A stretch of 32,000 nucleotides of DNA from an archaeon GW2011_AR10 (GCA_000830275.1 CP010424.1:1170001-1202000), one strand, 5' to 3'. Counted from the stretch's first letter, positions 1 to 30,447 are shown. Notes: generated by a model from the sequence alone, not told the origin. Program-made: numbers and translations.

Positions 1-717
1 CAAGGTAATGAGTTTTTCCTGTTTTCTTTCAAACGCCTTCCTTATTTCCTTGAAGCTGGGTTCCTTCAGCTTCATTCTAGTGAACTCTCTTCCAATGCGG
101 TGAGGCCAAGGACTGTGGGCATCAGAGCTAGTGAGAAAAGAATACGAGTGGTTTTCTTCAATCAAGTCTGCAAGCGCCGAGTCAGCGCTCAATCCAAGCT
201 CAATGAATGAAATGCTTTCAGCCATTCCCCCATAAGCTTTCCTGACCGAGTCATGGTGTGCATAAATTCCAGTATAAGGCGTGAAAGAGTGCGCTGGCCC
301 AATGATGCCTTTGGCTTCCTCAACATTTTCAGCTATCTGCTCTGCGTTAAGCCTCAGCACTGGCCTTCCGCACATAGCGCAGTCAAGGTTGCCGAACCCA
401 ATCAATTTCTCGCGGAGTTGTTCTGCAGCAGAAAAGTCAGGCAAGTAAATAAGGTGATGTGCCCTGTCCTTTGATTCAACCTCGGTTCCAACAACAAAAA
501 AGCATTTGCTGTTTTTGTCGGAGAAAACGCCGTTGCTTTCTTCCACAATGCCCTGCTTTACGTGCTCGAACCACTTTTTGTGGAGGATATCAGCACTGGA
601 AACAGCGTCAATGCCCTTAAGTTTAGCCTGCTCCGCAATTATCGGCACAAGCATGTTTTTGCTTACTCCGCCAGCGTAAACGCCGTGCAACTGAAGGTCA
701 AGGTTGAATTCCTTCAT
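1..717 (-). CDS. Endonuclease Q-like PHP-family nuclease (TIGR00375 type), N-terminal 239 aa; gene continues past the left window edge
   Basis: Hand translation of the minus strand from ATG 715-717 is open to position 1: MKEFNLDLQLHGVYAGGVSKNMLVPIIAEQAKLKGIDAVSSADILHKKW...VGTEVESKDRAHHLIY...GPAHSFTPYTG...IELGLSADSALADL...TSSDAHSPWPHRIGREF. This block order matches my memory of the EndoQ family. It is absent from the ORF track because it is truncated. Confidence 0.7.
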   Translation of the reverse strand, partial: MKEFNLDLQLHGVYAGGVSKNMLVPIIAEQAKLKGIDAVSSADILHKKWFEHVKQGIVEESNGVFSDKNSKCFFVVGTEVESKDRAHHLIYLPDFSAAEQLREKLIGFGNLDCAMCGRPVLRLNAEQIAENVEEAKGIIGPAHSFTPYTGIYAHHDSVRKAYGGMAESISFIELGLSADSALADLIEENHSYSFLTSSDAHSPWPHRIGREFTRMKLKEPSFKEIRKAFERKQEKLITL

Positions 718-733
718 TCAATCCCCTATTAAT

Positions 734-826
734 TATAGCAGGCGACATTAATTTTTGAACATTTATTGTCGCCTGATAGATAGCAAATGACCTTGTTTTG
801 TTCAAATATTTTTGTCATTTGCTATA
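734..826. repeat. Family-1 hairpin modules, cluster A (2 modules)
   Basis: Module 1 (734-780): TATAGCAGGCGACA, 19-nt loop, TGTCGCCTGATAGA. Module 2 (781-826): TAGCAAATGAC, 22-nt loop, GTCATTTGCTATA. Loops carry TTGAACA / TGTTCAA. Confidence 0.85.
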
Positions 827-846
827 TATTAATATAAAAAAGAATT

Positions 847-900
847 AATATTTGGAGTATTGGGGAGTTTGGTAATATTTGGAGTATTTGGGTTTTTGGT
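847..900. repeat. Tandem duplication of a 27-bp unit (2 copies)
   Basis: AATATTTGGAGTATTGGGGAGTTTGGT (847-873) is followed directly by AATATTTGGAGTATTTGGGTTTTTGGT (874-900). Confidence 0.8.
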
Positions 901-920
901 AACGGCTGGTAAGCTGCATG

Positions 921-1244
921 CTATATTGGCATGTTGAAGAACTTTAGTATGAGTATTGCCCCTACTCCTGCCAAACCGAAGATGGCAGAAATTACTATTG
1001 TTGGAATAAGCTGCAGCTCAATTTTTAACACGAACACCATCACTGCCCAAGCGATAAGGCCGAGCGCTGAGTTAACAATTATTTTTTTGAGGTGAATGAG
1101 AATAAGTACCGCTGCAATAATTAGAATGAAGCCGATCACGAGAATCTGCCAGTTTCCCGCGAGCTGCTGTGTTATGTCGTTTGCTGTCTGGGAAGCGCCT
1201 TCAATTGCGCTGCCTTCCAGCGCCTGCAAAAACAAACCCTGCAT
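921..1244 (-). CDS. Small integral membrane protein (hypothetical)
   Basis: 107-aa ORF with two or three long hydrophobic segments (ILVIGFILIIAAVLILI, GLIAWAVMVFVL, IPTIVISAIFGLAGVGAILIL). I recognise no family. Confidence 0.5.
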   Translation of the reverse strand: MQGLFLQALEGSAIEGASQTANDITQQLAGNWQILVIGFILIIAAVLILIHLKKIIVNSALGLIAWAVMVFVLKIELQLIPTIVISAIFGLAGVGAILILKFFNMPI

Positions 1245-1262
1245 AAGTATGCCTTTTTTATT

Positions 1263-1517
1263 CTATGGCGAATGACATTAATAATTAAACATTTATTGCT
1301 CATTTGCTATATGTAAAAGACAATATATTTTGCCATATGTAAAAGACAATTATTTTCCAAACAAGAATGTCTTTTACTATATTATATTAAGCTTATCAAT
1401 ATTATACTGTTTTGGTTTTATATTTATAGCAAAACGCTTAAGTAATTGAACATTGAATTGCGTTTTGCATCTAGCAACCAGCAGCATAAAGTTCAAAAAT
1501 ATAAGCTGTTTGCTATA
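1263..1517. repeat. Family-1 hairpin modules, cluster B (about 4 modules)
   Basis: Modules at about 1263-1311, 1336-1381 (GTAAAAGACAAT / ATGTCTTTTAC), 1425-1470 (GCAAAACGC / GCGTTTTGC) and 1472-1517 (GCAACCAGC / GCTGTTTGC). Positions 1425-1517 nearly duplicate 6621-6713. Confidence 0.85.
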
Positions 1518-6230: not shown

Positions 6231-6356
6231 CTGCTTTAGAGGCGGGGCATAACAAGGAAAGCAAGCTTTTTTTGCTCTGAATGGCCTCGTTTTTCTGGTT
6301 TTAACACTGTTTTTTTCATATTTTATGGGGCACTTTATATAAATAAGGCCATTTAT

Positions 6357-6436
6357 CAGCCTTTTAGGAAAAGGCTGGCGAAAAAAAGCCTACGGCAACA
6401 GCCTTTTAAAAAAAGCCCGTCGAAAATGCGCCTTCT
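6357..6436. repeat. Family-2 short-hairpin concatemer, copy I
   Basis: CAGCCTTTT-AGG-AAAAGGCTG, then GCC-TAC-GGC, then a second AGCCTTTTAAAAAAAGC unit. A TATA-like CTTTATATAAATAA lies at 6333-6346 just upstream. Confidence 0.75.
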
Positions 6437-6541
6437 GCTGGTTGTTTCTGGTTTCTCTCGCTTCTCTCGTCCCTTAGCTGGTTTTTCCTTCAATAAGCCG
6501 AATTCAAACAGTTAATTCCACTGTTTTTAAGCAGTGCGACG

Positions 6542-6826
6542 CTATAGTATATGGCAAAATGCTTTTGTGTTTGAACAAATAGCGAATGACTTTAATAATG
6601 GTAAAAAGCAAGTCATTCGCTATAGCAAAACGCTTAAGTAATTGAACATTGAATTGCGTTTTGCATCTAGCAAACAGCAGTATACAGTTCAAAAATATTG
6701 GCTGTTTGCTATAGTCGCAAAAGACATTAAGAAATTACCGAAACTAATGTCTTTTGCTAAAAAAATTGCATTTTGCATTTAGCAAACAGCAAATTAAATT
6801 TTCAAGAATCAAAGCTGTTTGCTATA
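6542..6826. repeat. Family-1 composite element, copy C (about 285 bp, 6-7 modules)
   Basis: Modules at 6580-6624 (GCGAATGAC/GTCATTCGC), 6621-6666 (GCAAAACGC/GCGTTTTGC), 6668-6713 (GCAAACAGC/GCTGTTTGC), 6714-6759 (GCAAAAGACAT/ATGTCTTTTGC) and 6780-6826 (GCAAACAGC/GCTGTTTGC), plus half-modules. Nearly identical to 26007-26283. Confidence 0.9.
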
Positions 6827-8185: not shown

Positions 8186-8859
8186 CCTTGAATCGTTATC
8201 TGCTTGCTGGTTTGATTACTCTCGCAATATTGGGGGTTGTTTTTGGGGCGGTCCTGCTTTTAGATGACTGGCGGGTTTCAGGCATAAACAAAGACCTTGA
8301 AGATTTGAGCATTCAATCAGAGTCCAACAGAGTGCTTTTCTTTTATAACCAAGTTTTTGATCCCGCCGAAAACCCGCGGTTCTGTGAACTAGCCAACTCG
8401 AGCGCTACTCTCCGCTCCAACCAAGGAGACCTGCTTTTTGCAAAACTCGAAAACTATGAAGGCGCCAGTTTCTTTGGCAGTTACAGAATTCTGCGGCAAA
8501 AATACCTGCTTAACCGCATTGAACTGTGGCTTTTTACAACGCTTCAAAACAAAACCTGTGGAAGCAATTTTGTGCCGGTCTTGTTTTTTTATGAATCTAC
8601 TGTTGATTGCCCGGAATGTTTAGTGCAGGGAAACATTTTGGAAGAGCTCCGAAACCAATGCCCAAATGTAAAGATTTTTGCTTTGTCCGTAGATGAAGAA
8701 ATAGATTTAGTGCCTTTAATTCAGTCCCAGTTCAATGTTTCGACTGTTCCTTCCTTGGTTGTGGACAACCAATTTGTTTTTGAATCCTTAACCACTAAAG
8801 AAGAAATCTTAAGAAATATTAAATGTGAAGAAGTCATAGCGAAACGAATAGTTGTTTGA
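8179..8859 (+). CDS. Membrane-anchored thioredoxin-fold protein (CPEC motif)
   Basis: 226 aa. N-terminal TM LLAGLITLAILGVVFGAVLLL. VLFFYESTVDCPECLVQ...STVPSLVV matches a CxxC thioredoxin/glutaredoxin-like layout. Overlaps the GT2 stop by 7 nt. Confidence 0.55.
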   Translation: MVTLNRYLLAGLITLAILGVVFGAVLLLDDWRVSGINKDLEDLSIQSESNRVLFFYNQVFDPAENPRFCELANSSATLRSNQGDLLFAKLENYEGASFFGSYRILRQKYLLNRIELWLFTTLQNKTCGSNFVPVLFFYESTVDCPECLVQGNILEELRNQCPNVKIFALSVDEEIDLVPLIQSQFNVSTVPSLVVDNQFVFESLTTKEEILRNIKCEEVIAKRIVV

Positions 8860-8864
8860 CAAAT

Positions 8865-9005
8865 GGCGTTTTGCAACCAGCCAATAAAAGTTCAAGAATT
8901 AAAGCTGTTCGCTATATAGTAAAAGACATAAGTATTTACACAATAATTGTCTTTTACATATAGCAAGCGACAATAAATGTCTAAATATTAATGTCGCTCG
9001 CTATA
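8865..9005. repeat. Family-1 hairpin modules, cluster D (about 3 modules)
   Basis: Half-module GGCGTTTTGCAAC, then ...GCTGTTCGCTATA, then TAGTAAAAGACAT/GTCTTTTACATATA (8917-8962), then GCAAGCGACA/TGTCGCTCGC (8961-9005). Lies between convergent genes. Confidence 0.85.
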
Positions 9006-14666: not shown

Positions 14667-14758
14667 TATAGCAAAATGCTTGTGTGTTTGAACAAAAACT
14701 GCATTTTGCAACTAGCAAACAGCAAATTAATGCTCAAAAATCAAAGCTGTTTGCTGTA
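14667..14758. repeat. Family-1 hairpin modules, cluster E (2 modules)
   Basis: TATAGCAAAATGC/GCATTTTGCAAC (14667-14712) and TAGCAAACAGC/GCTGTTTGCTGTA (14713-14758). Lies immediately upstream of rpl10e. Confidence 0.85.
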
Positions 14759-14805
14759 GAGCAATCCTATAATACTCTTCAATTGCAATCATTTTTAAGG
14801 CTTTA

Positions 14806-15007
14806 GGTAAACCTTTTAGGAAAAGGTTTGCGAAAAAGTGCCTTCGGCCAAAACCTTTTAAGAAAAGGTTTATCAAAATGGGGCTGCGCCGAAAACCTTT
14901 TTAGAAACCCAAGCAAAATCATAGATTTTGCGGGCCTCGCAAAACCAAGGGTTTTGCAAGGAGTTTTATCAAAAAGTGCCTTCGGCTGAAAACTTTTAGG
15001 AAAACTT
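14806..15007. repeat. Family-2 short-hairpin concatemer, copy J (longest copy)
   Basis: Consecutive hairpins AAACCTTTT-AGG-AAAAGGTTT, GCC-TTC-GGC, AACCTTTT-AAG-AAAAGGTT, GGC-TGC-GCC, GCAAAATC-ATA-GATTTTGC, GCAAAACC-AAG-GGTTTTGC and GCC-TTC-GGC. Positions 14895-14995 align with 18775-18870. Confidence 0.85.
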
Positions 15008-16269: not shown

Positions 16270-16641
16270 ATGGGTCTTCCTGCAGCAGAGAGAATGAATT
16301 TGATTAGAATGAAGAGGCTGGAAGCAGGGCTTAAGAACCTTCAATGGAAGGGACGGCGCTGGTGGGCTCGCCAAAGTCCGGAGCTGAGGGCATTCAAGGA
16401 AAGCATTTTGAAGGAAATAAGGGAAGGAAACATTCACGACCCAATAAAAGTTATGGAATTGATTGCAGAATTCAATAAAAAGCACCAAACAAGATATGAT
16501 GTAAGGCACTTTTTTTCGCCAGAAGAAAGGATTGAGTTGTCAAAGCTTTTCCAAGAAATGTTTTTGCAGCGTAAAACAGGGGAACAGCATGGCAGGATAG
16601 CGGGACTTACACCACAGGAAAGGCATGCACTCACAATTTAG
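16270..16641 (+). CDS. Hypothetical protein
   Basis: 123-aa ORF, 9 nt after the preceding stop. Basic and helical-looking. No family recognised. Confidence 0.4.
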   Translation: MGLPAAERMNLIRMKRLEAGLKNLQWKGRRWWARQSPELRAFKESILKEIREGNIHDPIKVMELIAEFNKKHQTRYDVRHFFSPEERIELSKLFQEMFLQRKTGEQHGRIAGLTPQERHALTI

Positions 16642-16706
16642 TAGAAAAGCTTGACCAAAAGAAAAAGCACTAATTTTTGATAAATTTGCGGCCTATTGCT
16701 TTGCAA

Positions 16707-16904
16707 TATAGCAAAATGCTTAAGTAATTGAACATTGAATTGCGTTTTGCATCTAGCAAACAGCAGTATACAGTTCAAAAATATTGGCTGTTTGCTATAG
16801 TCGCAAAAGACATTAAGAAATTACCAAAAATAATGTCTTTTGCTAAAAAAATTGCATTTTGCAACCAGCAAATTAATGCTCAAAAATCAAAGCTGTTTGC
16901 TGTA
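16707..16904. repeat. Family-1 composite element, copy F (deletion variant of C and G)
   Basis: Same module order as 6621-6826, with only a couple of substitutions over ~150 bp. It lacks the GCGAATGAC module. Its first module is a chimera (5' arm GCAAAATGC, 3' arm GCGTTTTGC). Confidence 0.9.
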
Positions 16905-16944
16905 GGTAAAAAGGTTTGCGTTGCATTTGGCTGCAAACGAAGAG

Positions 16945-17101
16945 AGCTGAGGATGGGAGTCGAACCCATCTCTTCCGCTTACAGCAACCAAAAGCTGCAA
17001 AAGACAGCTTTCTTTTGCTTTCTTTTGCTTTCTTTTGTAAACTTTTCTTTTCTAAAGAAAAGTTTCTGCAGGCGGATGCATGGCCGATCTGCCACCCCAG
17101 C
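16945..17101 (-). tRNA. tRNA-Cys (anticodon GCA) with an 86-nt intron at the canonical 37/38 position
   Basis: Hand-folded on the minus strand. Acceptor GCTGGGG/CCTCAGC (one G-U). D arm GCA-GATCGGCCA-TGC. Anticodon stem TCCGC/GCGGA with loop CTGCAGA. 4-nt variable loop. T arm ATGGG-TTCGACT-CCCAT. Discriminator T, no encoded CCA. Exons are 17066-17101 and 16945-16979; the intron is 16980-17065. Confidence 0.85.
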
Positions 17102-17215
17102 GAAACGGTAACCTCCGTTTACAAGGTGTGCCATTTTCAATGGCACTGGCTCGGCTCTTGGAGCCTCGCAACGGCTGGAACTTCAGCCGGCAAAGGTACC
17201 ATTAATCATTTTTGC
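17102..17215. other. Run of five consecutive perfect hairpins between tRNA-Cys and the ThiI-like gene (function unknown)
   Basis: AAACGG/CCGTTT (17103-17120), GTGCCAT/ATGGCAC (17128-17146), GGCTC/GAGCC (17153-17165), CGGCTG/CAGCCG (17172-17189), GGCAAA/TTTGCC (17189-17215). Confidence 0.5.
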
Positions 17216-17271
17216 CAGAAAACTTATTTAAGGGTACTATTGCTTTCTGAAGAGCTATTTTAACGGTTTTG

Positions 17272-18192
17272 ATGGAATGTTCCTGTATGAATGAGCAGGA
17301 ATGCGTGCTTTTGAAGACTTCTCCTGAAATATCCCTTAAAACCCATTACGTGAGAAGATACTTCACTGAAAAACTTGTTTCCAACATTAAAACTGTTTTG
17401 AGGCAAAACAAGCTCAGTGGCACTGAGGTCAGAAAAAAACCCGGCAGGCTGTTAATTTACTCTGAGAAAAAAAAGCTCCCGAAAATCGGCAAATTGATGG
17501 AAAACATTTTCGGCGTTACTTCAGTTGCGTTTGCCAACAAAATTGGTTCAGTTGAAAAAAGCGAAATAATTCTTGAAGCAGTAAAGCTAGCGGGGATGCA
17601 TTTTAGTGAAATGGACTCTTTTGCGGTCAGGGTTAAAAGGCACGGCACTCACCATTTCTCTTCAAAGCAGCTCGAGGAGGAAATAGGTTCAGCAATAAAC
17701 CAGAAAATTAACGGGTTAATTGTTGACTTGACTTCTCCAAGCAAAGAGCTGTTTGTTGAGGTCAAGGATCTTGAAACATTTTTTTACACTGAGGAAAGCC
17801 CTGCTGCAGGCGGGCTGCCTTTAGGCTGTGAAGGCAATGTTGCAGTTGAATTCCTTGGGAGAAAAGAGGAGCTGCTCGCAGCTTGGCTGATGATGAAGCG
17901 GGGCTGCAATGTTTTTCCGCTTGTGGAAAAGAAAACCAAAAAAATTGAATCACACATCAATAAGTTGAGGAAATGGAATTCTTTCAGGAAATTCAAGCTC
18001 ACAGAGTTGCAGGACAAGAAAGACTTGCTTGAAAAAAAAGATATTGCGGTAAAGGCAATAGTGAAGGCAGACACTGTTTTCTCACGAGAATTTGTTGCGG
18101 AGAAAAAAAGGCAGCCAGTGCCTGTCTTCTGGCCACTTGTTTTTTACCCTGAGGAATTGTTTGAACGCGATATAAAGAAGGTGCTAGGTTGA
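17272..18192 (+). CDS. ThiI-like THUMP-domain protein with a degenerate PP-loop domain
   Basis: LLKTSPEISLKTHYVRRYFTEKLVSNIKTVL (ThiI N-terminal style), a THUMP-like middle, then GGLPLGCEGNVAVEFLGRKEELLAAWLMMKRGCNVFPL, where the expected SGGxDS is replaced by LGRKEE. Short C-terminus. ATG at 17272. Confidence 0.6.
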   Translation: MECSCMNEQECVLLKTSPEISLKTHYVRRYFTEKLVSNIKTVLRQNKLSGTEVRKKPGRLLIYSEKKKLPKIGKLMENIFGVTSVAFANKIGSVEKSEIILEAVKLAGMHFSEMDSFAVRVKRHGTHHFSSKQLEEEIGSAINQKINGLIVDLTSPSKELFVEVKDLETFFYTEESPAAGGLPLGCEGNVAVEFLGRKEELLAAWLMMKRGCNVFPLVEKKTKKIESHINKLRKWNSFRKFKLTELQDKKDLLEKKDIAVKAIVKADTVFSREFVAEKKRQPVPVFWPLVFYPEELFERDIKKVLG

Positions 18193-18980
18193 TTAAAGGC
18201 GTTGTGTTTGATTTGGATGGCGTTATAGTCAACACTCCGGACATTTACTTTAAGACAATGAAGGAATATATTAGGGGGCACTCAGTCAAAGTAAAGGATG
18301 AGGATGTGTCCAAGCTAATTGGCTACTCGTTGAGGGACGAGCTAATGCTGATAAACCAGAAATATGGCCTCAATATTGAACTCTCTGAATTTGTTTCAGT
18401 TGTTCTCTCCAAGTCAAGGAAACTGATGGAAAAAGAGATGAAGGTCAATGATGGTTTTACTGAACTGCTTTCAGAACTGAAGGAAAACCGCTTCAAAACA
18501 GCTGTTGCCTCAAACAATGTTCCTTCAACAATTGATTTCATTCTGTCAAAGTACGGTTTCCTTGAGTCATTTGATGCAATTGTTGGAGCCGACGATGTGA
18601 AGCATGGAAAGCCCAGCCCTGAAATATACATTAAAGCAGTTGAAAAGTTGGGTTTGAAGAAAGAGGAGTGCATCGCAATTGAGGACACTTTAATAGGGTT
18701 AAAGGCAGTCAGTGCAGCTGGCCTTAAATGCATTGCTTTTCCAAACAAGTTCACTAACGGCCAAAACCTTTTAAGCAAACCCAAGCAAAATCATGGATTT
18801 TGCGGGTCTCGCAAAACCAAAGGTTTTGCAAGGAGGTTTGCGAAAAGTGGCCTTCGGCTAAAACCAAAGGTTTTACGAGGAGGTTTGCGAAAACGCAGCT
18901 CCGCCAAAAACCTTTTCGGAGCAGTTTTAACAATCGGGAGCCTCACTGAATTGAATTCAGGGGTAATAAGGGGGCTTTAA
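18189..18980 (+). CDS. HAD-superfamily hydrolase (beta-phosphoglucomutase/phosphatase-like, subfamily IA) carrying an in-frame repeat insertion near the C-terminus
   Basis: VVFDLDGVIVNT (motif I), VASNN (II), KHGKPSPEIY (III), IAIEDTLIGLKAVSAAG (IV). TTG start overlaps the upstream stop (TTGA). Residues ~193-240 are encoded by the family-2 repeat. Confidence 0.8.
   Translation: MIKGVVFDLDGVIVNTPDIYFKTMKEYIRGHSVKVKDEDVSKLIGYSLRDELMLINQKYGLNIELSEFVSVVLSKSRKLMEKEMKVNDGFTELLSELKENRFKTAVASNNVPSTIDFILSKYGFLESFDAIVGADDVKHGKPSPEIYIKAVEKLGLKKEECIAIEDTLIGLKAVSAAGLKCIAFPNKFTNGQNLLSKPKQNHGFCGSRKTKGFARRFAKSGLRLKPKVLRGGLRKRSSAKNLFGAVLTIGSLTELNSGVIRGL
18761..18916 (+). mobile_element. Family-2 repeat copy K inserted in frame within the HAD hydrolase CDS
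   Basis: Bounded by near-identical direct repeats CCAAAACCTTTT (18761-18772) and CCAAAAACCTTTT (18904-18916), whose ends are 144 bp apart. The interior aligns with intergenic copy J (GCAAAATCATGGATTTTGC, GCAAAACCAAAGGTTTTGC, GGCCTTCGGCT). Confidence 0.7.
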
Positions 18981-20207
18981 ATGAGGGTGGCGATTTTTTC
19001 TGACACTCACCTTGGCTTCAAAGCGTTTGGGCGAGAGCAAGAAAGCTTTGAGAATGCGGAGCAGGCATTTGGCATAGCGTTGGATAATAAAGCAGACGTA
19101 ATCCTGATTGCGGGCGACATATTCAATGAAGTAACTCCCTCAACCGATGTGCTGGTTGGTGCCTTTCAGCTGTTCAGCAAAGCGAAGACAAGCAAAAAGG
19201 ACATAAAAATAGGGGTTTCCTCGAAAAAGCAAGTGATAGAGGAAATAGTTGCAGGAATTCCAATAATCTTAATTCACGGAAACCACGAATTCAGGGGAAA
19301 AGACTACACTAACGTGCTGCACCTTTACAGCAAATCCGGTTTCGCTTTCTACCTTCACGCTGAAACAGCTGTGCTGGAAAAAGGAAACGAAAAGCTTGCA
19401 GTGCATGCTTTAGGCGGGGTGCCAGAGCAAAAAGCGCTGGATGCGCTAAAGCTTTGGAATCCAAAGCCAGTGGAAAGCGCAGTGAACATTCTCCTATTGC
19501 ACCAGAATTTCAAGGAGTTTTCCCCGGTTGAAGACGAAATGGTTGCAACCCTTTCCTTGGATGATTTGCCAAATGGCTTTGACTTGATTGCTTCAGGGCA
19601 TCTTCATTGGACGGTAAAGCAAAAGCTCGGCAAAACAACTTTTTTGCTTGCAGGAAGCACAATCTGCACGCAGATGAAGAAAGTAGAGCAGGAAAACAGG
19701 AAAGGCGTTCACTTGTTTGAAACTCAAGCAAAAACCATTGAATTCATTCCTTTGCCTGTGCAGAGAAACCTTTTCTACCATAAAATAAGCTTTGAAGAGG
19801 CCAAGCCAGAGCAAGTAATCCACAAAATTCATGAGGCAATAGAGAAAGACTTAAAAGAAGGAAATGCCTTGCCCCCGCTTATAAGGCTGAAACTGGTTGG
19901 CAACCTGTCCAAGGGCATTTCGCTTTCAGATATTGACTTAAAGGCTGTTGAGGAAAAATTTCGGGGAAAAGCCATTATGTCTGTTTCGAAGGAGTTTTCA
20001 ACAACCGCTTTCAAGAAAAAAATTGCGGAACTCAGGCAAATACAGCAGTCAAAGCAGTCAATTTCTTCAATTGGCTTAAGCATTCTTGAAAAAAACCTGA
20101 AGGAAACCGATTTCAATGACGCATTTGAAGTGAAGAGAATATTTGACTTGCTTGCAGAAGACGAAACAGACAAAGTCTCTGAAATTCTTTCAAGAAGGAA
20201 AAAATAA
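18981..20207 (+). CDS. mre11: DNA double-strand break repair nuclease Mre11
   Basis: Calcineurin-like phosphoesterase motifs: FSDTHLG, AGDIFN, IHGNHE, SGHLH. 408 aa. ATG immediately follows the HAD stop. Confidence 0.85.
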   Translation: MRVAIFSDTHLGFKAFGREQESFENAEQAFGIALDNKADVILIAGDIFNEVTPSTDVLVGAFQLFSKAKTSKKDIKIGVSSKKQVIEEIVAGIPIILIHGNHEFRGKDYTNVLHLYSKSGFAFYLHAETAVLEKGNEKLAVHALGGVPEQKALDALKLWNPKPVESAVNILLLHQNFKEFSPVEDEMVATLSLDDLPNGFDLIASGHLHWTVKQKLGKTTFLLAGSTICTQMKKVEQENRKGVHLFETQAKTIEFIPLPVQRNLFYHKISFEEAKPEQVIHKIHEAIEKDLKEGNALPPLIRLKLVGNLSKGISLSDIDLKAVEEKFRGKAIMSVSKEFSTTAFKKKIAELRQIQQSKQSISSIGLSILEKNLKETDFNDAFEVKRIFDLLAEDETDKVSEILSRRKK

Positions 20208-26006: not shown

Positions 26007-26283
26007 TATAGCAAAACGCTTATGTATTTGAACAAATAGCGAATGACTTTAATAATGGTAGAAAACAAGTCATTCGCTATAGCAAAACGCTTAAGTAATT
26101 GAACATTGAAACTGCGTTTTGCATCTAGCAAACAGCAGTATAAAGTTCAAAAATATTGGCTGTTTGCTATAGTCGCAAAAGACATTAAGAAATTACCAAA
26201 ACTAATGTCTTTTGCTAAAAAACTGCATTGCAACCAGCAACAGCAAATTAAATTGTCAAAAAAAATTAAAGCTGTCTGCTGTA
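26007..26283. repeat. Family-1 composite element, copy G (about 277 bp)
   Basis: Collinear with 6542-6826. By eye there are only about half a dozen differences over the central ~190 bp. Lies between the aIF1A stop and the rio1 start. Confidence 0.9.
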
Positions 26284-26293
26284 GAACTAATGC

Positions 26294-28087: not shown

Positions 28088-28467
28088 AGCGCTGTTGAAT
28101 GCTGTTGCATGATTCACAGAAACAATCAGCTAAAAACTGGCGGCATCAGTTCTTAGCATCCTCATCATCCTTGCGTCATCAGGTGTTAACCTCATTAATG
28201 TTTGAATTTTGGTGGGTTATGACACCCGCTTTAACCCCTGTTCCGGCCTCCATTTTGTAAATAGAATATAAATAATTCACATTAAAATTGTTGCTCTCAC
28301 GTTCAAGAACGAAGCAAAACACGGCACGGAACAAAGGCAAGAATAAGCCAAAAGCTCTTTACCTGGCAGAATTTATCTTTATAAAGAAATTATCTTTTCT
28401 TGTTGAATTGTATAAAGTTTTATTAAACCTATTCTTGTAAGATAATTAATCTGGAGGGTTGTTATTT

Positions 28468-28605
28468 ATGTGGGGGATAAAATCAAAGAAAGGTTTTGCT
28501 TTTGCATTTTACGCTTTCTTTGTTTCAAGTATCTTTTTTATAACAAAAAATAAATTAAAAAAGACCAAGCCAGAAAAAATATTTACGGCCAGTTCTTTGA
28601 GTTGA
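28468..28605 (+). CDS. Possible 45-aa single-TM peptide
   Basis: ATG 8 nt after GGAGGG. MWGIKSKKGFAFAFYAFFVSSIFFITKNKLKKTKPEKIFTASSLS. Below the ORF-track size cutoff. Confidence 0.3.
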   Translation: MWGIKSKKGFAFAFYAFFVSSIFFITKNKLKKTKPEKIFTASSLS

Positions 28606-28611
28606 TTTCAA

Positions 28612-29028
28612 ATGTTTGTGAAAAAAGAACAATTTATTGCTGTGTTTTTGGTGGTTTTTGCAGTTGCTTTATTGTTTCTTAGTGGTTGTTTGGAAAAGAC
28701 TTGTTTTAACCGTGCTGACTGTCCTTTAAGCGATTCCGAGTACATTCAAATCGCAAAAACAACTTCGGAAGCACAAGCATTCCTGCAAAAATATCCTGAT
28801 GCAAACATTGGGGTTGAGAGAACTGAATACTTGGCAGTTGACTTTATAAAAAATAAGTCAGGTGAAAGCACTATTGTTCCACCTTACTTGCGATTAAGAG
28901 TTTTTATAAACACTTCAACGAACAAGCCAGCGTCAGCTTTCATAGAATGTAACCTCACGGGTGACAACTATTCAAGAATAGACCAAGACATTGTTAATTA
29001 CATAAAAATAGAAAAATGTTTAGCATGA
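28612..29028 (+). CDS. Putative lipoprotein (hypothetical)
   Basis: Signal peptide with lipobox: FLVVFAVALLFLSGC. 138 aa. No family recognised. Confidence 0.5.
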   Translation: MFVKKEQFIAVFLVVFAVALLFLSGCLEKTCFNRADCPLSDSEYIQIAKTTSEAQAFLQKYPDANIGVERTEYLAVDFIKNKSGESTIVPPYLRLRVFINTSTNKPASAFIECNLTGDNYSRIDQDIVNYIKIEKCLA

Positions 29029-29509
29029 ACTAGCTCCCTTTCTTTTTCTTTTTTTTCTAATTTTTTGCCGAAATAAAAAAATTATTCAGAGGGAATCAGA
29101 GTTGAGTTAAATCATCATTCCCGTTGAGGGGTCAGAAGGTCTTAACTTCATCCCGCGCCTTCCTAATACTCTGTTTTTGAATGTGTTTAAAACCCTTTTT
29201 TTGGTCACTCGGAAGTGAGGCTTGTTTTTCAGTTCTCCATCAATTCTGCATTGTCCGGATTCTCGGGCGCAGACAAATATTTCAGGTAAGCCGTGATTTT
29301 TGAGTTCTAAAAGGATCTGTTTTGCGTATGTTTATTTCAAATAGTTCACATAAAGAAAGCGGGTTTTTCCAATTAGCCGGTTTTTTTGGAATTGGTGTCA
29401 TCGCCCTCCACTTTTCAGACTATAACCTCATCATCGTCTGCAGTAATTTATAGAGATTATTGCTTTAATTCTTTGCTTTTTTTTATATTCTGTTAAAGTG
29501 GTTTTTCAT

Positions 29510-29679
29510 ATGGGTAAAGAAAAAAATGGAAAGTTGTTATTTCAGAGAATGTTGTAAAGAAGATGGAAATGCTGCCTGAAAAAGACCAGAAAAAACTAAT
29601 GAATGCAATGGAAAAACTAGCTGAAAACCCTTATGCCGGCAAATCATCAAACAATTTAAATGGTTACGCTATAACGTAA
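29510..29679 (+). pseudogene. RelE/ParE-type toxin remnant (frameshifted in an A-run and C-terminally truncated)
   Basis: ATG GGT AAA G-A8 shifts frame into WKVVISENVVKKMEMLPEKDQKKLMNAMEKLAENPYAGKSSNNLNGYAIT*. This resembles the first half of RelE/ParE toxins and stops before the conserved C-terminal catalytic half. A TATA-like TTTTTTTTATATT lies upstream. Confidence 0.45.
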
Positions 29680-30110
29680 CCCTATTTAAATGCTTAAAAA
29701 GGGTTTGACTGGGTTAAGGCTAACAAAAGGCAGCGTAAATGTTAGTCTAAATCTTTGTGCTGGTTAGGCTGATAAGTGGCAATAACTTCCTTAGCCTAAC
29801 TGTCTGCCCAAACTTTCGAAAACTTTTTTCTTTTTCGGACAAGCCGCTTAATTTTGCATTACTACTCTTTTCTTTGCTCTAAAGCCAAATAGTTTGTATA
29901 AAATCCAAATTTCTTCCTATGGCAACGCTCAAAATACTGGTGCTAACAACTACGCTTTTTGCGAGGATGACCTCATAATCGCCTACTGTGATGTATAAGG
30001 ATTATTCCTTAAAATTAACGGTTTTTTGCAGAGAGCAACGTTCACCTAATCCAAGTAAAATTTATAATCTGGTAGCGCCTTTTATTCTTAAAATGAAAGG
30101 AGGTGAAATT

Positions 30111-30356
30111 ATGGCTGGGTTTTCGCAGATTAGTGCCAAGGCGGCTGCAATTACTGGTGCGGTTCTGGGTTTTCTGTGCGGTATTTTTTCAATCGGAATG
30201 GTTGGAATGATGGGGCTGAATTATGCAGGCTTTACCATGATGGGCGGCGCATATTCTTATCTGGGCTGGTTTACCGCAATTTATGGCCTTGTGATTGGCG
30301 CGATTGTAGGCGGATTAATTGCAATAGTATACAACTGGGCACTTTCACTCAAGTAA
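30111..30356 (+). CDS. Small Gly-rich two-to-three-TM membrane protein (possibly GlsB/YeaQ/YmgE-like)
   Basis: ATG 4 nt after GGAGGTGA. MAGFSQISAKAAAITGAVLGFLCGIFSIGMVGMMG...GAIVGGLIAIVYNW. The track start at 29988 is unlikely. Confidence 0.55.
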   Translation: MAGFSQISAKAAAITGAVLGFLCGIFSIGMVGMMGLNYAGFTMMGGAYSYLGWFTAIYGLVIGAIVGGLIAIVYNWALSLK

Positions 30357-30447
30357 AGAACATTGCAGAATTATGCTGTGTGCTTGATAAGCTGTTTTTG
30401 CTAGGCTGGGCTTAACCAAAGTGAGAATTCTGTCTGATTCAATCAGT

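Follow-up and report, generated by a model that had tools for sequence, protein, structure and literature searches.

The window analysed here, a 32,000-nucleotide stretch of chromosomal DNA, comes from GW2011_AR10 (hereafter AR10), a groundwater DPANN archaeon of the Diapherotrites (Ca. Iainarchaeum) with a small, streamlined genome of 1.24 Mb. Among the genes of the window are those for an S-layer protein, a GT2 glycosyltransferase, TruD, eRF1, an amino-acid kinase, a diphthamide synthase, L10e, a THUMP protein, Topo VI A and B, RIO1 and eIF-1A; the eRF1 and L10e are exact matches to AJF60775.1 and AJF60779.1, and the region is present at 99.5-100% identity in several aquifer metagenomes. A search of the window with a covariance model made from the repeat family found 24 modules of about 45 bases in seven arrays, all of them intergenic, while the same model found zero modules in control DNA (about 1 Mb, unrelated). 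Likewise, 24 inverted repeats with perfectly matched arms of 9 bp or more and a spacer of 13-28 nt were counted in the window, compared with 3.5 ± 2.2 in 100 dinucleotide-preserving shuffles (maximum 12). The modules account for about 3% of the window DNA and, as we estimate, for a quarter or more of its intergenic part; core genes with modules in their promoter or leader regions are L10e, RIO1, MCM and a THUMP-domain gene.

Each module is 40-47 bp long and follows the plan (nTA)GCAAA-NN-GC, AT-rich centre of 15-23 nt, GC-NN-TTTGC-TAT(A). The outer five stem pairs (GCAAA/TTTGC) are almost constant and the next two are free yet complementary; the AT-rich stems measure 9-14 bp, with a variable inner part of 2-6 bp that is kept Watson-Crick complementary and an extension to 10-14 bp in types GCGAATGACTT, GCAAAAGACATTA, GTAAAAGACA and GCAGGCGACA. 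Two conserved kinds of centre exist, X type (AATTnAAnGTTCAATTAnTTA) and Y type (ATAAAAnGTTCAAAAATATAA), both asymmetric, and the modules are polar, the covariance-model scores of the two strands lying 10-30 bits apart. At the 3' end, TAT is found in at least 90% of modules, mostly as TATAG, with TGTAG only after E2, F5 and G6; the 5' flank ahead of GCAAA is variable (ATA, CTA, GAT, TAT, ATG or GTC). X and Y modules mostly stand back to back and point outward, which places TATA at both outer ends of such a divergent pair, and modules, pairs and blocks all end in TAGCAAA...TTTGCTA, that is, in terminal inverted repeats. The arrays are as follows.

Array A, 735-825: divergent pair A1-A2.
A1, 735-779, minus strand: arms CAGGCGACA / TGTCGCCTG, minus-strand centre ATAAATGTTCAAAAATTAA; faces the gene starting at 717; 53.5 bits on the minus strand, 20.7 on the plus strand.
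A2, 780-825, plus strand: arms (ATA)GCAAATGAC / GTCATTTGC(TAT).
Array B, 1265-1516: modules B1-B4.
B1, 1265-1310, minus strand: arms GCAAATGAG / GTCATTCGC at 1268-1307, two mismatches (one A·C, one G·G); 23 nt upstream of the start codon at 1244.
B2, 1313-1380, orientation ambiguous (44.1 vs 36.6 bits): module at 1339-1377 with arms GTAAAAGACA / TGTCTTTTAC, preceded at 1313-1338 by a 26-bp tandem duplicate of its left arm.
B3, 1426-1471, minus strand: arms GCAAAACGC / GCGTTTTGC, X-type centre (AATTCAATGTTCAATTACTTAA on the minus strand).
B4, 1471-1516, plus strand: arms GCAACCAGC / GCTGTTTGC at 1474-1513 with a C·T mismatch, Y-type centre (…AAAGTTCAAAAATATAA); ends 21 nt ahead of the GTG at 1535.
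Array C, 6553-6825, unstranded: split X-type module (left arm and half centre 6555-6578, right arm GCATTTTGC 6767-6775) enclosing a block of four modules.
Block of array C: C1 6579-6623 (plus), C2 6622-6667 (minus), C3 6667-6712 (plus), C4 6714-6760 (plus).
C6, 6779-6825, plus strand: follows the right arm of the split module.
Array D, 8862-9005, unstranded: between the convergent gene ends at 8859 and 9012; orphan right arm GCGTTTTGC, D2 8870-8915 (plus, two mismatches), D3 8916-8959 (minus), D4 8960-9004 (plus, one A·C mismatch).
Array E, 14668-14757: divergent pair of E1 14668-14712 (minus, arms GCAAAATGC) and E2 14712-14757 (plus, arms GCAAACAGC).
L10e promoter, 14784-14797, minus strand: ancestral BRE/TATA, AAAGCCTTAAAAAT in gene orientation, conserved in relatives.
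Array F, 16708-16903: F1 16708-16753 (minus, mixed), F2 16753-16798 (plus), F3 16800-16846 (plus), orphan right arm GCATTTTGC 16855-16863, F5 16858-16903 (plus, C·T mismatch).
Array G, 26010-26285: half module 26012-26035, G1 26036-26080 (plus), G2 26079-26125 (minus), G3 26125-26170 (plus), G4 26172-26218 (plus), degenerate last module at about 26226-26275.

An initial annotation of this DNA had claimed that the arms conserve complementarity rather than sequence, and had named eight arm pairs. All eight were found in the window, four of them within 734-1517 and four elsewhere.

GCAGGCGACA/TGTCGCCTG: 738-775.
GCAAATGAC/GTCATTTGC: 783-822.
GTAAAAGACA/TGTCTTTTAC: 1339-1377.
GCAAAACGC/GCGTTTTGC: 1429-1468.
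GCGAATGAC/GTCATTCGC: 6582-6620 and 26039-26077.
GCAAAATGC/GCATTTTGC: 14671-14709.
GCAAACAGC/GCTGTTTGC: 6670, 6782, 14715, 16756 and 26128.
GCAAAAGACAT/ATGTCTTTTGC: 6717, 16803 and 26175.

We aligned 38 distinct modules from AR10, from a Lac Pavin Iainarchaeum metagenome-assembled genome (MAG) and from metagenome contigs, mostly of the Hainich aquifer. The 9-bp helix is Watson-Crick paired at 96.5%, and seven of its nine pairs carry compensatory double changes; at columns 9/39 and 10/38 all four pair types (CG, AU, UA and GC) are present, with zero and two broken cells, respectively. Double-changed cells number 66, compared with 20.7 ± 3.8 after shuffling, and the covariation score is 0.400, compared with 0.153 ± 0.015; neither value was reached in any of 500 shuffles, and sliding the partner columns lowers the score to 0.05-0.10. 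The claim of complementarity thus holds, and the proposed minimum of eight stem alleles on one scaffold is exceeded, with 11 perfect 9-bp alleles among 23 arm pairs. The initial annotation had also allowed for the opposite outcome, a lack of independent double substitutions. These are present, since the same two loop types carry different complementary cores in different organisms: the core of X loops is ACGC or ATGC in AR10, GAGC in the Hainich contigs and AAGC at two further loci (L230 and L245), and that of Y loops is CAGC, CTGC, CCGC, TCGC or GTGC. The centre (…GTTCAAAAAT…) is conserved across organisms more than the arm core; between AR10 and Hainich, X-type centres are identical at 17 of 22 positions and both variable pairs differ. 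Two Hainich copies, one with A·C (L180) and one with G·T (L197), represent the two alternative half-steps of a single A-T to G-C change. Arm complementarity is therefore real and arose repeatedly. Perfect pairing is not strictly required, since mismatch-bearing copies have themselves been duplicated, as for the arm pair GCAACCAGC/GCTGTTTGC, which is found in three to four modules. Polarity, the conserved centre, the organisation into pairs and blocks and the evidence for insertion had no place in the initial annotation.

Array E is an 85-bp insertion in the conserved leader of L10e, with TA on each side. When this pair is excised, the region upstream of the AR10 L10e gene becomes exactly colinear with that of relatives (L277, L278, L130 and others); the L10e BRE/TATA lies 35 nt upstream of the inserted pair, and after excision TATA and ATG are 72 nt apart, the distance seen in L278. 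In three of the five relatives that align there, a single TA stands at the insertion point, and the leader holds the insertion in AR10 but lacks it in six relatives, which were obtained via their L10e homologues and share the gene order of AR10. In these six (L129-L131 and L276-L278) the covariance model found no module above noise, the sole match being a weak one in L276 (E = 0.31, 19.3 bits); with modules missing from the relatives, the comparison yields empty-site evidence in place of orthologous modules. TA...TA flanks are seen at the E pair and at both A pairs; TATA is however constant at every copy, so that a TA duplication is not separable from it. The nested block has a single TA on each side.

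Copies are found at several scales. The A1-A2 pair recurs at a second locus (L126, 19258-19346) with TATA flanks at both loci, and an identical or near-identical X-Y pair stands beside unrelated flanks in at least eight Hainich aquifer contigs. A composite array of about 280 bp is present at 6548 and 26005 and, in a shortened version, at 16707; array G is a paralogue of array C (90.8% identity across 283 bp), and in both a four-module block sits inside the centre of another module. At one further locus (L168), an X-type module contains a repeat of a different kind. No transposase domain or other partner protein was identified in the 52 kb examined out of the 1.24-Mb AR10 genome.

Beyond AR10, modules are carried by the Lac Pavin MAG (L069) and by 14 metagenome loci of other sequence. 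A scan of a genome collection for GCAAACAGC-N20-26-GCTGTTTGC gave nearly all chance matches, the Lac Pavin MAG being the only relevant one among the matches listed. The metagenome scan for GTTCAAAAAT-N6-14-TTTGCTATA gave 115 loci, about 100 of them by chance and 14 true module carriers (L197, L245 and 12 taken straight from the scan), and in a viral scan all 29 matches were chance ones, none with a covariance-model match. Among strains 99.5-100% identical, no module is polymorphic for presence or absence, and hence there is no sign of recent module movement; strain differences consist of point changes, mostly in loops, and of a conversion-like patch in array F.

Altogether, we read the modules as small, lineage-restricted, directional, hairpin-type intergenic DNA repeats of a DPANN archaeon, an archaeal equivalent of the REP/BIME/REPIN elements or MITEs of bacteria, and assign this reading a probability of about 0.5. 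The family is probably mobile, and a known RNA or a protein-dimer binding site is less likely than such a mobile hairpin repeat family.

The gene context points to a second reading, possible though on the whole doubtful, in which the modules are portable promoter or insulator cassettes: the centre would act as an outward BRE/TATA core promoter and the 3' TATA as a proximal promoter element, the T-run would stop transcription arriving from the other side, and the arms, flanking the TATA box, would regulate how accessible it is. In favour of this, polarity and outward orientation do not vary. Terminal modules end 21, 23 and 21 nt ahead of three start codons in the window and 23 nt ahead of one elsewhere (L235), with a Shine-Dalgarno-like motif in between at all four genes; the Y-type centre TGTTCAAAAATATAAG resembles the eRF1 promoter TGTCTTAAAATATAAA, which is itself module-free; and tandem gene gaps run in the order stop codon, second (terminator-like) repeat family, module array, start codon. 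These features suggest that the outward-facing centre could serve as a BRE/TATA-like core promoter. Against this, the ancestral TATA box of L10e persists upstream of the insertion, and canonical BRE/TATA elements follow downstream of the arrays at MCM, RIO1 and the L168 gene, so that the modules are not simply the promoters of these genes. Moreover, array D fills a gap between convergent genes and several Hainich pairs also face gene 3' ends, the inner modules of arrays have nothing to transcribe, the relatives use ordinary promoters, and the complementarity of the arms is left unexplained. The module 3' TATA as the TATA box of the gene itself was considered and rejected, the 17-19 nt from TATA centre to start codon being too short. 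Because L10e, MCM, RIO1 and the L168 gene keep their own TATA elements and because array D and the Hainich pairs face 3' ends, promoter or insulator activity is possible as a secondary property only. The cassette reading could be compatible with the mobile-repeat reading.

A conserved loop on a covarying stem is also the classic signature of structured RNA, and modules in leaders, trailers or small RNAs might present the loop to an RNA-binding protein or stabilise, process or terminate a transcript, much like co-transcribed REP or Correia elements. We hold this to be unlikely, and slightly less credible than a promoter role. In its favour, the conserved L10e TATA box precedes the E pair, which is thus probably part of the mRNA leader, and array C is predicted to fold into nested, discrete hairpins in which the split arms still pair (z = -9.05). 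The pattern of mismatches speaks against it. The initial annotation had seen a weak hint of a single-stranded form in a U-G wobble confined to the plus strand, which is not borne out: on the loop-oriented forward strand, G·T occurs 3 times and A·C 7 times among distinct arm pairs (6 vs 8 with four further copies), the stem cells of the 38-module alignment hold 3 G·U and 5 A·C, and mismatches show no strand bias. The chimeric module behind that hint is real and spans 16711-16750 (GCAAAATGC...GCGTTTTGC), yet it is a junction of two types and the wobble reading falls with this: its left arm comes from a split ATGC-type module and is joined directly to loop and right arm from a module of ACGC type, and the perfect partner arm of the split module, GCATTTTGC, survives at 16855-16863. 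A deletion between the direct repeats GCAAAA(T/C)GCTT that are seen in array C would be expected to leave such a junction. Relative to the genes beside them, modules also point either way, so that no single strand is consistently transcribed. The lack of a G·U preference and the two orientations fit a DNA-level palindrome, which predicts strict Watson-Crick pairing without strand bias in mismatches, and leave an RNA or strand-specific form unsupported. Further points against RNA are the 9-bp AT-rich stems with large loops, the single-strand fold energies of -3.5 to -12.4 kcal/mol per module (DNA parameters), which for some modules are no different from those of shuffles, and the database searches, in which the whole window gave zero Rfam matches at gathering score and zero at E <= 1, and a tRNA search gave no match.

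The initial annotation had further offered selection for a hairpin or cruciform, and of this the conserved pairing stands. A cruciform is disfavoured by the centres of 15-23 nt, since extrusion from duplex DNA is unlikely with an unpaired centre of this size.

The remaining proposal, a dimeric binding site with a specificity-determining core, would turn the modules into operator arrays with half-sites about 31 bp (three helical turns) apart and variable cores that select paralogous regulators; the constant GCAAA/TTTGC half-sites at fixed centre-to-centre spacing, the nearby promoters and two tandem Lrp/AsnC-type proteins encoded close by would suit it, but we think it very improbable, because at least 11 perfect alleles would need one protein each, and thus as many regulators in a 1.24-Mb genome, positions uncontacted by protein are not expected to covary, the same loop type carries different alleles in different organisms, and near-identical 90-bp pairs at many unrelated loci, together with the L10e insertion, suit spreading copies better. 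As allele-specific binders the two tandem proteins were rejected, being barely related to each other and also matching the NirDL-like HTH family, which takes its name from an enzyme, siroheme decarboxylase. C/D-box and H/ACA small RNAs, CRISPR, archaeal origin-recognition boxes, dif/Xer sites and integron attC appeared improbable on sequence grounds and were likewise dropped.

Returning to the mobile hairpin repeats, we propose that the modules have spread by copy-and-paste, singly, as outward X-Y pairs (about 90 bp) or in blocks of several modules, landing in TA-rich promoter or leader regions and sometimes in the centre of another module. The matching of the arms would be upheld at the DNA level, either by a propagation machinery that recognises a single-stranded hairpin or by within-strand template switching that corrects the arms, and the two routes may combine. 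Distinct inner stems would let each module of an array fold on itself. We infer a single-stranded DNA form of the modules and active mobility by an HUH/Y1 transposase or a TA-targeting DDE transposase; the centre may double as an outward BRE/TATA-like promoter whose T-run faces incoming transcripts. Since the centre varies less across organisms than the inner stem does, and since the outward orientation is constant, a host-level or protein-binding function is suggested, for which a purely selfish model is insufficient. A more far-reaching view, which we regard as tentative and rather unlikely, is that of self-contained mobile regulatory cassettes of DPANN archaea, with a BRE/TATA core promoter in the loop and an allele-specific stem on either side of it; they would spread in outward pairs that stop incoming transcription and start it anew, and with stems that are mutually orthogonal, arrays could fold into a set succession of hairpins, as single-stranded DNA or as RNA.

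With the REP, BIME and REPIN elements of bacteria, the modules share that they are short, extragenic, lineage-specific palindromes in high copy, with several sequence classes per genome and structure kept over sequence. As in REP and BIME, they form mosaic arrays of alternating orientation, here seven intergenic arrays of 2-6 modules with X and Y opposed, and the centre between inverted units recalls BIME-1, in which a protein-binding motif (an IHF site) lies in that position. These bacterial elements are mobilised by RAYT, a Y1 transposase of the IS200/IS605 type. Recognition of REP elements as single-stranded hairpins has been proposed (PMC3733652, PMC2817692). There are also differences: REPs are 20-40 bp long with a G+C-rich stem and a small loop, as opposed to 40-47 bp, an AT-rich stem and a centre of 15-23 nt; the GTAG or CGTC end tag belongs to REPs, while the modules end in TA-GCAAA and show no conserved tag of this kind; REPs mostly lie downstream of genes and modules mostly at 5' regions; and the host is archaeal, with no RAYT found in the 52 kb examined.

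MITEs (such as Stowaway and other IS630/Tc1-mariner derivatives) and the Correia elements of Neisseria resemble the modules in their terminal inverted repeats, in the TA on both sides of the inserted pair and the insertion at a TA present in relatives, and in insertions near promoters, nested insertions and possible outward promoters and co-transcription. The filled site in AR10 and the empty ones in six relatives at L10e are also MITE-like, and come without polymorphism among AR10 strains. Unlike MITEs, the units are 40-47 bp and the pairs about 90 bp long with only some seven terminal bases constant; the inner arms covary, a property that terminal repeats do not need in order to be bound by a transposase; target duplication is inseparable from the conserved TATA ends; and no parent insertion sequence is known for the modules or was seen in the loci examined. 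Units that are small for a MITE, loops that far exceed those of REPs and AT-rich stems all count against the mobile-repeat reading.

Two further systems are similar in part. The BOX elements of Streptococcus pneumoniae (boxA-boxB-boxC) are modular, intergenic units of about 45-60 bp in variable combinations, predicted to form stable stem-loops near gene starts; there is however no sequence relationship, the modules of BOX are not individually palindromic with allele-specific stems, and the host is bacterial. Integron attC sites are imperfect inverted repeats whose folded single-strand structure, and not the sequence, is conserved and recognised; they differ in their length (57-141 bp), R''/L''-L'/R' boxes, extrahelical bases and gene cassettes beside an integrase, none of which is present here.

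In summary, although REP, BIME and REPIN palindromic repeats are well studied in bacteria, we found in the literature no description of a small palindromic repeat family in DPANN archaea. If the modules truly are mobile promoter or insulator elements, they would be of a kind not described in archaea. The family provides an unusually clean natural case of a covarying stem combined with a conserved directional loop, and thereby makes testable how such repeats propagate in archaea, whether they rewire transcription in reduced genomes, and whether DNA-level mechanisms can mimic the covariation that is normally read as RNA structure.

Comparison of the window with locus L001, to which it is 99.95% identical over 21 kb, revealed that all differences (10 of 10) fall within array F, at 16830-16912, one of the arrays of hairpin-type repeat modules. 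These differences, among them a 5-nt insertion, shift the sequence toward that of another array, array G. They result either from gene conversion between the arrays or from chimeric joining of repeat copies during metagenome assembly.

The modules also share a recurrent mismatched left arm, GCAACCAGC (versus GCTGTTTGC), which is found in 3-4 modules with differing centres, and whose first GC is usually shared with the last GC of the right arm of the preceding module (…TTTTGCAACCAGC…).

Modules with the mismatched left arm GCAACCAGC
1474-1513, module
8873-8912, module
16861-16900, module
about 26226, module

Between array F and a THUMP-domain gene lies an unannotated ORF of 115 aa, which holds a short tandem repeat, GCTTTCTTTT x3, at 17007-17050. 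Another tandem repeat, of 27 bp (TAATATTTGGAGTATTGGGGAGTTTGG, 2.1 copies, 846-902), with the terminal sequence GGGTTTTTGG, directly follows the outward end of module A2 of array A, and one strain carries a 3-nt insertion at 875 in this repeat region. Array A is adjoined by an MJ0043_C-family gene (window 1-717, extending past the window edge; L124 10531-13143), which shows an intein polymorphism: its product has 423 aa in most strains and 870 aa in strain ERZ4903137, where an intein is present together with a LAGLIDADG domain. In the syntenic relative L131, an intein is also present in the eRF1 gene (16537-19293).

Toward the end of the window, a stretch at about 28100-30400 is low in G+C (35-36%) and contains only short ORFs, and the synteny with strain L126 stops at about 28164. 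Past this break, L126 (11000-21110) carries other genes (GARS, ferric reductase, RNase HII and ZPR1) together with a second copy of the A1-A2 module pair of array A. The stretch and the end of synteny may mark a rearrangement or an island boundary.

Strain L004/L124 (99.55% identity) shows 65 differences from the window, about 14-15 of which are clustered beside array C in 75 bp of non-coding DNA (6408-6483). The stretch 6410-6545 on the minus strand, for which Rfam gave no match, begins just beyond the outward-facing end of the split module (whose arms are parted by an enclosed block) and terminates in GGGC-TTTTTTT. This stretch may represent a small RNA or peptide gene that lacks annotation.

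Finally, a second repeat family consists of tandem units of 42-47 bp, in each of which a palindrome, AAACCTTTT-nn-AAAAGGTTT, precedes a G+C-rich hairpin (…GCCTTCGGC…).

Copies of the second repeat family
2195-2275, window
6355-6410, window
14805-14907, window
18813-18915, window
17440-17580, locus L123
620-700, module-carrying locus L168

At its 3' end, a called HAD hydrolase ORF overlaps with the window copy at 18813-18915. Since the copies mostly lie directly after gene 3' ends, this family may act as a terminator, or else may represent a further mobile family.
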